Origin: Myxococcota bacterium
Lineage (GTDB): Bacteria > Myxococcota_A > UBA9160 > UBA4427
DNA: 64,000 nt
NCBI GenBank assembly: GCA_965250285.1
Contig: OZ252299.1
Span: 2,304,001-2,368,000 of the forward strand
Direction of reading: 5' to 3'
Shown here: positions 16,382 to 42,751 of the stretch, in pieces
Layout of the letters: the number at the start of each line of letters is the position of its first letter
How positions within the stretch are numbered: the first letter of the stretch is position 1
Translations under genes and position numbers: made by a program
The notes under the pieces: model-generated
The model's input: the letters and a program-made list of their open reading frames with translations, nothing else
Told to the model about the DNA's origin: nothing
Database searches by the model: none

Positions 16382-17122
16382 TCACGCGAGATGCGATTGC
16401 AGTGCGGCGCGAACCTTCTCGGGATCGGAGCGTTGCTGATAGTTCTCGGACTGATCCATCCAGACGATCGTGCCGGAGGCGTCCGCGAGAATCGTCGTCG
16501 GCACCGGCTGGGGTCGCCCGGGCGGCCCGGTCTGGATCAACTGATTTCGCAACCCGAATCGATCGGTCACCTCGAGGTCGGGATCGGCGAGCATGATCGC
16601 CTTCAGACCGTGCTTCGTGCGGCCTCGCGCGATCGCACCGGGCGAGTCAGTACACACCGTGACGATCTGAACGCCCTTCGCGTCGAGCTCGGGCCGAAGC
16701 TCTTCCCATCGCCGCAACTCGGCGACACAGTAGGGTCACCAGTGGCCGCGGAAGAACTTCAGCAGGATCGGCCGCCCCTCGATGCCCGAGAGCGTGAAGG
16801 GCTTCGCATCGTCGTCGAGGGCCGTGACGTCGGGCAGCTTCGTGCCGACACGCACGGCGTCGGGCGCCACCTGCTGGCGGCTGATCGCGACGAGCACCGT
16901 GAAGAAGCCCCCCGCCGCGAGCCCGAGCCCACCGAGCAGGCCCCCGATCCAGCCGGGTGAGCTCGTCAGGGCCGAGGCACCGAGCCCCGCCGCGACGACC
17001 CAGCCGACGACGAACGGGGTGCGCGCGCCCTCGAGGGCCACAGCGTTGGCGCGGCGAAACCAGAGCACCGAGGTGACGGCGAGGATCGTGAAGGAGACGA
17101 TTCCGAGTGTGAATCCGCTCAT
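16382..17122 (-). CDS. Selenoprotein: membrane-anchored peroxiredoxin-like (AhpC/TSA, redoxin) protein with UxxC
   Basis: ORFs 16736..17683 and 16382..16717 are in frame across TGA 16736-16738: KFFRGHW-U-PYCVAELRRW. Three N-terminal TM segments; SECIS-like hairpin follows the UGA. Confidence 0.9.
16705..16735 (-). promoter_or_regulatory. Putative bacterial SECIS element
   Basis: After UGA: CCC-UACUGU-GUCGCCG-AGUUG-CGGCGAU-GGG; 7-bp apical stem, loop starts after 16 nt. Confidence 0.65.
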
Positions 17123-28868: not shown

Positions 28869-29498
28869 TCAGCCGAGCGCCCCGTCGAGCTGGCGCTGCA
28901 TCCACTCGGCGAGCGCTTGCGCGACCGGATCACCCGTCGCCCGCAGCCCGGCGACCGTGCCTGCGCGATGCGCACGCGAGTGGTTCTGGCCGAGCTTGGC
29001 CTTGGCCTCGATCCGGTCGATGGGCAACTCGAACGCGACGACCGCGCGCCGCATACGCTCGAGGAAGTCGGCGGCCTGCTCGGTCTCCGACCAGCCTCCC
29101 GGCGGCTCGAACTGCGCGACGAGGCGGGACAGCAGCGCCTCGACGGTCCCGTCGTCTTCGATCCGCCGCGGTCGGCCGGTCACGTGCGCGGTCACGTAGT
29201 TCCAGGTGGGCACGCGCGGACCGTCGGGGTATCAGTCGGGCGAGACGTACGCGTGGGGGCCGGCGAAGACCACCAGCGCCGGGCGGCCCTCGTCGAGCAT
29301 CCCGGCGTGGTCGTTCGCCCGGGCAAAGTGTGCGCGCAGCGTGCCGCGGGGCCCGGCAGACGCCTCGAGCTCGAACGGCAGGTGGGTGCCGATCGGCGCC
29401 CCCTGCCCCGCCGAGACGATGAGCCCGAACGGGTGCGACCGGATCACCTCGTGCTGAAGCGCGAGATCATCGAGTGAGAAGGGGTCGGGGACGTACAT
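28869..29498 (-). pseudogene. paiB: PaiB-family FMN-binding protein interrupted by in-frame TGA
   Basis: HFARAN..GPHAYVSPD*YPDGPRVPTWNY..KAKLGQN; TGA 29232-29234 sits at the conserved Trp of SPxWY. Confidence 0.75.
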
Positions 29499-41467: not shown

Positions 41468-42751
41468 CTACTCCGAAACGCGGCGGCCCCGTCGTCCATC
41501 CTCGCGCCGATTGCGTCGCGCGGCCGGACCGAGACGCATATCGGCGGTCGACGCACGCAGATACCGCAGCCCCTTGATCGGGCTGCGCAACAGGCCCCGG
41601 GCCACCTTGCGCAGCATCAACCTGCGCGAGTCCATGGTCGTCGGCATCGCACCCCGCATCTCGCCCGCGAGGCCATGACCCACGAATGGGGTGACGGGCA
41701 CGGTGAGCGAGAGCGTCTCTCGACGCGGGATGTGGCACGCTTGATCGTCACAGGCCTGATAGTCGACGTGCACGGCGATCGAGATCTCTTCGACCTCGAT
41801 GTCGTCCATCAACCCGGCGATGCGATCGTCGGCGACGACCGGGACCACGAAGTCGACGCGTCCATCCCACACGGCCAGCTCGAGACCGAGCGCCGGCAGC
41901 GTGAGGGGATGCGTCGGCGGCTTGCGCACCTCACCCACCTGAAGCCCTTCGGGCCCTGCGACCCGAATGCGCGTCGCCACCATGCCCTCGGGCACCGGCT
42001 CGTCGTAGATGTGCAGGCCCGCGGCGAGCTCGAAACGAACGACGATCTCACGGTGCACGGCGCCCTTCAGCGTGCCTCCGCCGCCGTGATACGTCGCCGA
42101 GACGCAAATCTGGTCGTCGCCCCCAGCGTCGGTGGGCTCGCCTTCGCCCAGCAGGATCTCGCCCAGCGCGCTGTCGATCATGCTCTCGGGCGATGATCGC
42201 TCGGCGAGGTTGCGATGGAAGAGCTTCTCGACGACTGCACCCGACTCGTCGAGCACGTAGGTGCCCGGGAACGGAATGCCGTGGAACGGAACCTGGTCGG
42301 GGGTGACGTTGTGGTTCAGCAGGCCGAGCTCACGGATCCACTTCGAGCCCTTGTCGCTCAAGAGCGGGTACGTGATGCCGTGGTGCCGCGCAAACTCGGC
42401 CAGCTCACCGGGACGGTCGTACGAGATCGCGTAGAGCTTGACTCCGGCGGCTTCGAATCTCGACTGCGCGTCTTGCAGCTCGACCAGCTGCGTCATGCAA
42501 GGCGGTCACCAGACCGCCGAGCGATAGAACACGACGGCCGCCCGGGCGTTGCCCCGGTCGGCGTGCAGGTCGAGCGGCACCCCCTGCGACGACTTCAGCA
42601 CGATGTCGGGAAAGCGCTCGCCGACGGCGGGTCTGGGGTCGAAGTCGTGCGACGGCGGGATGCGCTGACCGTCGGTCGCGCGCCGCGGGCCCACGAAACC
42701 GAACTCGTCTCGAAACTCGGGGTAGTCGTCGTAGCTGCGGCCGCTGCCCAT
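41468..42751 (-). CDS. Selenoprotein: peroxiredoxin-like UxxC domain fused to DsbD N-terminal-like domain
   Basis: ORFs 42506..42751 and 41468..42496 are in frame across TGA 42506-42508: VFYRSAVW-U-PPCMTQLVEL. C-terminal part has GLHIY and YQACDDQACHIP. Confidence 0.9.
42472..42505 (-). promoter_or_regulatory. Putative bacterial SECIS element
   Basis: After UGA: CCGCCUUGCAUGAC-GCAGCU-GGUCG-AGCUGC-AAG; 6-bp stem, GGU loop starting after 20 nt. Confidence 0.7.

Follow-up and report, generated by a model that had tools for sequence, protein, structure and literature searches.

Organization of the Gene

The window, that is, the whole stretch of 64,000 nucleotides that was analysed, carries on its minus strand a single frame of 427 codons (42751-41468), with a GAGG about 8 nt upstream of the ATG start. 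The frame holds one in-frame TGA only, at codon 82 (42508-42506), in the context FYRSAVW-UGA-PPCMTQL. The gene is divergent from a P450 gene and lies 38 nt upstream of a PhyH-type dioxygenase gene on the same strand. This PhyH neighbour is present in only 2 of 110 loci, and a search for a conserved neighbour in these 110 loci gave clusters of at most 13 (a convergent AhpC/TSA gene) and 12 (short-chain dehydrogenases). Promoter and terminator scans returned no more than expected by chance. The features discussed below are the following.

41468..42751, minus strand: whole gene, 427 aa with UGA read as selenocysteine (Sec); ATG start, TAG stop
42635..42751, minus strand: hydrophilic N-terminal extension, residues 1-39, with a conserved D-x-x-G-x-x-x-P (motif count, hydropathy)
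42158..42634, minus strand: Prx/TlpA-type thioredoxin-fold redoxin domain, residues 40-198, with U82-P-P-C85 and an invariant P162 (PF00578, VIA fold match)
42506..42508, minus strand: in-frame UGA, read as selenocysteine 82 (TGA in 105/106 distinct loci; Sec machinery in the genome)
42475..42491, minus strand: bacterial SECIS hairpin GCAGCU-GGUCG-AGCUGC (comparison across loci; criteria of PMC13188914)
41690..42142, minus strand: DsbD-alpha/ScsB-alpha-like Ig domain, residues 204-354, with H247-x-Y249 and Q332-x-C334-x4-C339 (PF11412, VIA fold match)
41735..41752, minus strand: cysteine pair C334/C339 (CDDQAC), conserved in the locus rows
41471..41689, minus strand: C-terminal tail, residues 355-427, with basic amphipathic helices 375-389 and 391-407 (hydropathy, AlphaFold2)
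16382..17122, minus strand: second selenoprotein gene at a separate locus, with hydrophobic N-terminal segments and a FFRGHW-U-PYC redoxin (UGA at 16738-16736)

Contigs assembled from three public runs of one study contain the gene without any alternative letter. A sequencing error is thereby less likely, but the evidence is not biologically independent, since the runs may include the source sample.

Domain Architecture of the Read-Through Protein

An earlier, sequence-only reading of this DNA had proposed a W-UGA-P-P-C redoxin fused to a C-terminal, Ig-like DsbD-alpha domain with a CDDQAC motif, and all of these elements are found. With the UGA read through, Pfam recognizes AhpC-TSA (PF00578) at residues 43-175 (89 bits) and DsbD_N (PF11412) at residues 234-348 (35.8 bits, cut-off 25), YQACDDQAC corresponding to residues 331-339; none of the NCBIfam models scores over its cut-off on the same protein. 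The frame continues for at least 270 codons past the UGA in 38/38 genome loci and in 67 of the 71 metagenome loci; three of the four exceptions leave their contig and one ends after the cysteine pair. Among the homologs examined, none has the two halves as separate genes. AlphaFold2, run on a 147-row alignment, gives a mean pLDDT of 95 and a pTM of 0.92 for the 427-aa protein, which is a confident relative placement of the parts in the predicted model.

The redoxin domain (residues 40-198) matches the BCP/AhpE and ResA/TlpA folds with VIA Z scores from 17.9 to 13.6. The best match is BcpB (Z 17.9, rmsd 2.1, 151 aligned residues), followed by another peroxiredoxin at Z 17.8, and a Foldseek search gave redoxin folds only among the matches listed. 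C85, P162, and R185, as well as H247 and Y249 of the Ig domain, are invariant in 109/109 locus rows. P162 stands at what we take to be the place of the peroxiredoxin catalytic Arg. The NCBIfam Prx models score far below their cut-off on this domain, and the Prx signature PxxxTxxC/U (PMC13188914) is absent from it, the site reading F-Y-R-S-A-V-W-U-P-P-C with R77 and U82 aligned to the P and T/S positions of the BCP signature. Lack of this signature, together with a Pro instead of an Arg at position 162, points to thiol-disulfide exchange rather than to Prx chemistry.

The likeness of residues 204-354 to DsbD-alpha came from the VIA fold search; searched by sequence against the PDB, the Ig domain alone gave no match. 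This region superimposes on Proteus ScsB-N (6c29) with Z 12.8 (rmsd 2.7, 126 aligned) and on Escherichia coli DsbD-alpha (1jpe) with Z 11.8 (rmsd 2.6, 109 aligned). By motif, H247/Y249, Q332, and C334/C339 match Y40/Y42, Q101, and C103/C109 of nDsbD, in which, as described, a cap loop shields the C103/C109 disulfide and cDsbD reduces it much more rapidly than DTT does (PMC3137068). The cysteine spacing is Cx4C here vs. Cx5C in E. coli nDsbD and Cx3C in the ScsB-type proteins of the host. Both C334 and C339 are present in 106/106 covered locus rows and in 118/118 covered near database proteins. Among distant representatives the pair is kept in 79 of the 88 covered, and it is lost, for example, in P0207 and P0243, which keep the redoxin.

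Outside the two domains, the D-x-x-G-x-x-x-P motif of the N-terminal arm is found in 104/105 covered loci, and the arm occupies the place of the signal peptide of exported relatives such as P0248. Most distant family members have a far shorter version of the C-terminal tail, which is well ordered in the AlphaFold2 model to about residue 410. In the model, a short linker (about residues 197-206) follows the last redoxin helix, so that active sites facing each other within one chain are not guaranteed. A crude coevolution run (effective number of sequences 242) placed C334/C339 8th among all pairs and gave weak tail-redoxin signals (S132-R389 and E116-L378); with this noisy depth, no clear contact between the two active sites appeared.

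The wider family comprises 1182 cluster representatives at E <= 0.001, and the 150 of these that were listed include members with a signal peptide (P0248, P0267) as well as signal-less, short-tailed Cys members. Several variants of the architecture occur. In L044 (G186)/P0008 five residues of the Ig cysteine loop are missing (YQACRIP), L038 repeats the YQAC-type cysteine-loop motif, L081 ends just past the cysteine loop, and the gene of G140:C206 is in two pieces. The distant relative P0144 (616 aa) has an apparent second redoxin start after the Ig domain, that is, a tandem arrangement. The host genome itself carries a second copy of the fusion, 47% identical, at G000:C1:1310794-1311990 (minus strand); this copy belongs to a different sub-branch and is thus not a recent duplication.

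Conservation of the UGA Codon and the Selenocysteine Machinery

The host genome (6.25 Mb, 68.6% GC, one contig) encodes the complete selABCD set: selA, selB, selD, and a tRNA-Sec(UCA), each above its curated cut-off. Full-length homologs were found in 11/40 related genomes. The second domain was matched in 56/225 genomes of the class, and 30 matches of that search were taken as loci. Three further homologs came from genome contigs labelled Planctomycetota, Myxococcales, and Actinomycetota. In total, 45 genome-derived loci were examined, 38 of them distinct and covering the UGA site, and the metagenome loci are the best 80 of 546 candidate stretches. Six genome and nine metagenome loci were dropped as duplicates, and the counts also exclude two others, L041 (a Sulfurovum thioredoxin whose match is confined to residues 70-114) and L063 (contig cut).

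TGA occupies the Sec codon in 38/38 distinct genome loci and in 70 of the 71 distinct metagenome loci (from the best 80 of 546), the last one having TGC. Combined, with three loci common to both sets, this makes TGA in 105/106 and TGC in one. A stop at codon 82 is always UGA, never UAA or UAG, across records labelled Myxococcota, Planctomycetota, and Actinomycetota. Cys stands at the Sec position in the relatives P0137, P0160, and P0248. In a tree of 50 rows, the Cys-reading L078 and P0004 (the latter seen as a protein only) pair as sisters within the Sec members, as would fit a late replacement of Sec by Cys. Among carriers of the gene, selA was found in 54 of the 55 other genomes, the exception being 85% complete. 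With the constrained SECIS described below, these data bear out the proposal that 41468..42751 is a selenoprotein gene, which is almost certainly the case.

The SECIS Hairpin

The hairpin at 42475..42491 has a 5-nt loop, GGUCG, located 20 nt behind the UGA, and a 6-bp stem, with a folding energy of -10.4 kcal/mol. The published bSECIS model described in PMC13188914 has a loop of 3-9 nt with G in its first two positions, a stem of 4-16 bp, an MFE <= -7.5, and a distance of 16-37 nt from the UGA; the hairpin agrees with this model throughout. Taken as a single sequence, its stability is no better than chance against shuffles in four of five folding windows (z = 0.01 to 1.25). The fifth folding window, which has 61 nt and includes both hairpins, gives z = -3.0, driven by the second of them. 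This second hairpin, GGCGGUC-UGGU-GACCGCC at 42518-42500 (minus strand), spans the UGA itself. Since the single-sequence fold is insignificant, support for the SECIS rests on the comparison among loci.

Across the 37 loci that were aligned, pairing holds in 221 of 222 stem cells (99.5%), vs. 18-46% in slid controls. A compensatory G-C to A-U double change occurs in three sequences and in 0/500 shuffles of these 37 loci, a significance that kinship inflates. Codons +5 (Thr), +10 (Leu), and +7 (Leu) are the most synonymously frozen of the 83 conserved multi-fold sites in the gene, and the Glu codon +9 is the most fixed among 34 two-fold sites. All six stem pairs are kept in 102 of the 108 TGA rows, and five in the remaining 6. 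The TGC row, L078, retains four pairs, at -2.9 kcal/mol vs. -8.2 or lower in the other metagenome rows; judged by its sequence, this lone TGC homolog has lost the SECIS hairpin, a control that is a single case. Hence, the SECIS-like hairpin with a GGUCG loop noticed at first sight is upheld by covariation and synonymous constraint, and not by the folding of one sequence. Sec would be inserted at UGA 82 via SelB acting on this hairpin.

Other Selenoproteins of the Genome and Their Annotation

The suggestion of a selenoprotein-rich genome with systematically split annotations is also supported. Eight of the 21 AhpC-TSA matches in the genome carry an in-frame TGA, each at a W/G-U-x-x-C site. In all, about 17 Sec-type UGA sites were retained: 8 Prx-like, 3 AhpD-like, 2 UGSC, 2 PrdB-like, 1 SelW-like, and 1 deiodinase-like, labels that we assume from the motifs, profile checks covering the 8 Prx-like sites and one AhpD-like site. 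This count of about 17 is hand-picked because both scans were noisy: the coding-score scan for UGA missed known sites, including that of the second selenoprotein gene of the window; the regex scan, for its part, produced numerous chance matches. As for annotation, 111 of the 120 database homologs listed begin at a Met four codons past the UGA and only 2 are full length. One database homolog, P0060, belongs to a Halieaceae isolate. The database forms are truncated “peroxiredoxins” devoid of U82 and C85, and annotation thus misses the chemistry of the family.

What had been called a 16.4-kb gene is indeed a selenoprotein gene, encoding a membrane-anchored redoxin (17122-16382, minus strand), but 16.4 kb is its position in the window and not its length. 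A read-through gene 16.4 kb long was rejected, long frames with TGA read as U being common in DNA of 69% GC. The membrane-anchored redoxin has a counterpart at G000:C1:3873714-3874112, which directly follows an ScsB-type gene; both carry FFR(G/A)HW-U-PYC and are near-identical over the 30 nt after the UGA. Three paralogs encoded on the plus strand at G000:C1:2490359, 4424435, and 4544202 are FYRGFW-U-PPC redoxins that have long extensions at both termini. An FMN_bind_2 (PaiB-like) gene of the window (28869-29498, minus strand; read-through 171 bits) has a TGA at 29234 (YVSPD-*-YP), a position that we presume to be Trp from the surrounding motif. The contigs covering it show no alternative letter, and this TGA is probably a nonsense mutation rather than Sec. 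The host SelD (L004; G000:C1:5312234-5313154, minus strand) has a CGGC (Cys) motif and lies within a frame of 781 codons, possibly the Ndh-SelD fusion that PMC2398784 describes.

Cellular Location and Electron Supply

In agreement with the initial remark that no signal peptide is evident, neither a hydrophobic nor a Tat signal was detected. The best 11-residue hydropathy within residues 1-45 is -0.36, and the Tat motif occurs neither in the 427-aa protein nor in 105 family N-termini, in a screen that used hydropathy and motifs rather than SignalP and in which a few upstream segments reached 1.5-2.0. No transmembrane segment was detected in the protein (best 19-residue hydropathy 1.2), and there was no DsbD transmembrane domain in the gene itself and no DsbD transmembrane gene in 124 family loci (flanks of 1.5-4 kb, often incomplete, duplicates included). 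Elsewhere the genome encodes two complete ScsB-type DsbD proteins, whose N-termini carry hydrophobic signals; the gene of one of them adjoins another Sec redoxin. In the tree, the exported members of the wider family form a separate branch. From these sequence features, the 427-aa protein is likely cytoplasmic.

In the 427-aa protein neither a flavin nor an NAD(P)H domain was detected, nor a membrane domain for electron input. An outside reductant would therefore be needed, and the proposed relay is not supported as “self-contained.”

A Proposed Mechanism and Its Alternatives

By analogy with known thioredoxin-type and DsbD systems, we consider it somewhat probable that the protein is a cytoplasmic selenol/thiol-disulfide oxidoreductase, in which the UxxC site exchanges with the built-in DsbD-alpha pair and is recharged by a thioredoxin-type system of the cell. 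As the first motif position does in thioredoxin-type folds, U82 would attack a disulfide or another oxidised thiol, and C85 would resolve the intermediate, the cis-Pro position being kept as P162. As in DsbD, the Ig domain would offer a capped disulfide that exchanges with thioredoxin-fold partners. C334/C339 would be a second two-electron store or an adapter, exchanging with U82-x-x-C85 in cis or across a dimer, while the helical tail would clamp the redoxin and Ig domains together. The final source of electrons would be an NADPH-linked thioredoxin.

More tentatively, a widespread branch of aquatic bacteria may have moved DsbD-alpha into the cytoplasm and clamped it on a Sec redoxin, making a soluble four-centre Se/S relay that gates the passage of electrons from one thioredoxin-fold protein to another. 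Such a protein could be, as part of that same tentative reading, a “DsbD without membrane domain” held by the helical clamp and the N-terminal arm. The relay would have escaped notice because both active-site residues are lost in gene calling.

A different chemistry, unlikely in our view, would make the protein a selenium peroxidase: U82 would reduce peroxides, C85 would resolve, and the DsbD-alpha pair would serve as a private reductase domain. Selenols react fast with peroxides, the best fold matches of the first domain are the BCP/AhpE peroxiredoxins (Z 17.9 and 17.8), and databases call the truncated product a “peroxiredoxin.” This idea is at odds with the absence of PxxxTxxC/U, R77 and U82 occupying the P and T/S positions of BCP, and with the Pro162 found in 109/109 rows at the presumed position of the catalytic Arg. 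Moreover, Caulobacter PrxL, a Prx-like protein without these residues, is described as having no detectable peroxidase activity (PMC3322552).

The exchange of U82-x-x-C85 with the Ig cysteines could also be questioned. If the Ig domain and the tail were a substrate-binding or structural module, C334-C339 would be structural or vestigial and only UxxC would turn over. This would suit the distant relatives that keep the redoxin and lose the Ig cysteines (P0207 and P0243; both cysteines in 79/88) and the lack of an active-site contact in the coevolution run. It is nevertheless quite unlikely, H247, Y249, and Q332 being as invariant as the cysteines and matching the nDsbD active site, and a structural disulfide being improbable in a cytoplasmic protein.

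Location raises another alternative, in which the protein would be brought to the envelope non-classically, or would attach to the membrane by its basic tail, and one of the ScsB/DsbD proteins of the genome would reduce it as an ordinary DsbD client. The two full ScsB-type genes elsewhere in the genome, the exported members of the wider family (P0248, P0267), and the basic, amphipathic tail helices would fit. We regard it as very unlikely, given that the protein shows neither a Sec nor a Tat signal and the 105 N-termini no Tat motif, that the exported members are a separate branch, and that a DsbD_TM gene was found beside none of the 124 loci. Finally, that the UGA is a true stop, in a pseudogene or between two short genes of which the second starts at Met86, is extremely improbable even if 111/120 database homologs among the matches listed start at that Met and another gene of the window has a genuine-looking TGG-to-TGA break: Met86 occurs in only 8 of the 38 loci from genomes, 23 of which have Trp instead; a stop at codon 82 would sever the thioredoxin fold at the active site; UGA is kept under three phylum labels and never replaced by UAA or UAG; and the SECIS is under constraint, with a Cys form known as well.

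Relationships With Known Systems

The family is not new, and the novelty implied by the sequence-only reading was overstated. Zhang and Gladyshev (2008) described selenoproteins that are Prx-like thiol:disulfide oxidoreductases (PF00578, UxxC; PMC2398784). Their Dataset S1, drawn from the GOS ocean metagenomes, contains 13 occurrences of “RSAVW,” and in one GOS read RSAVWUPPCWTQLGELR runs into the GLHIYGEPVP Ig domain; the main text of that paper mentions neither “DsbD” nor “DsbC.” Xu et al. (2021) named a [quoted passage not shown] and noted, in a single sentence that assigns no function to the fusion, extra conserved Cys of unclear function (PMC9402790). That fusion has the same domain pair and U/CxxC motif as the 427-aa protein, Pfam11412 being now DsbD_N. 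The Prx-like UxxC selenoproteins, a family that is predicted only, are listed in Table 1 of the 2026 review PMC13188914, and the redoxin/DsbD_N fusion does not figure in the first part of that table. A search of the open-access literature found no experimental study of the fusion. The hidden selenoprotein encoded here is real and has very strong support; its kind is catalogued but uncharacterised.

That the architecture is already on record limits the surprise. Its interest lies in the fact that the DsbD-alpha-type domains of the studies consulted work in the periplasm or in the thylakoid lumen. A signal-less Ig domain joined to a selenolate would offer a clean system in which to study the exchange between a capped disulfide and Sec and to look for cytoplasmic clients. 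For expression, the natural Cys homolog (L078/P0006) would be an easy stand-in.

Three known systems can be compared with the protein. The BCP/PrxQ and AhpE peroxiredoxins are the closest solved folds of the first domain; the 427-aa protein differs from them in lacking PxxxTxxC and in having Pro, not Arg, at the cis-Pro position. Plant SOQ1 combines a Trx-like domain, an NHL domain, and an nDsbD-like CTD, and its Trx-like and nDsbD-like domains are reported to bind in solution (bioRxiv 2021.03.16.435614); its structure (7djk) was retrieved by the fold search with Z 9.9. It has the same Trx-like and nDsbD-like domains in one chain, for which an internal disulfide relay was proposed. However, SOQ1 has a membrane anchor in the thylakoid lumen and Cys in place of Sec, is proposed to be fed by CCDA, and carries an NHL beta-propeller between the two domains, whereas redoxin and Ig domain are joined directly here, without such a propeller. 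In DsbD and ScsB, too, a single chain has an Ig fold bearing a terminal Cys pair (Z 11.8-12.8) and a thioredoxin-fold domain. Compared with them, the 427-aa protein is devoid of transmembrane domain and export signal and has the Trx-then-Ig order, the Ig domain being C-terminal here and N-terminal there, with a Cx4C spacing and a Sec in the Trx site.
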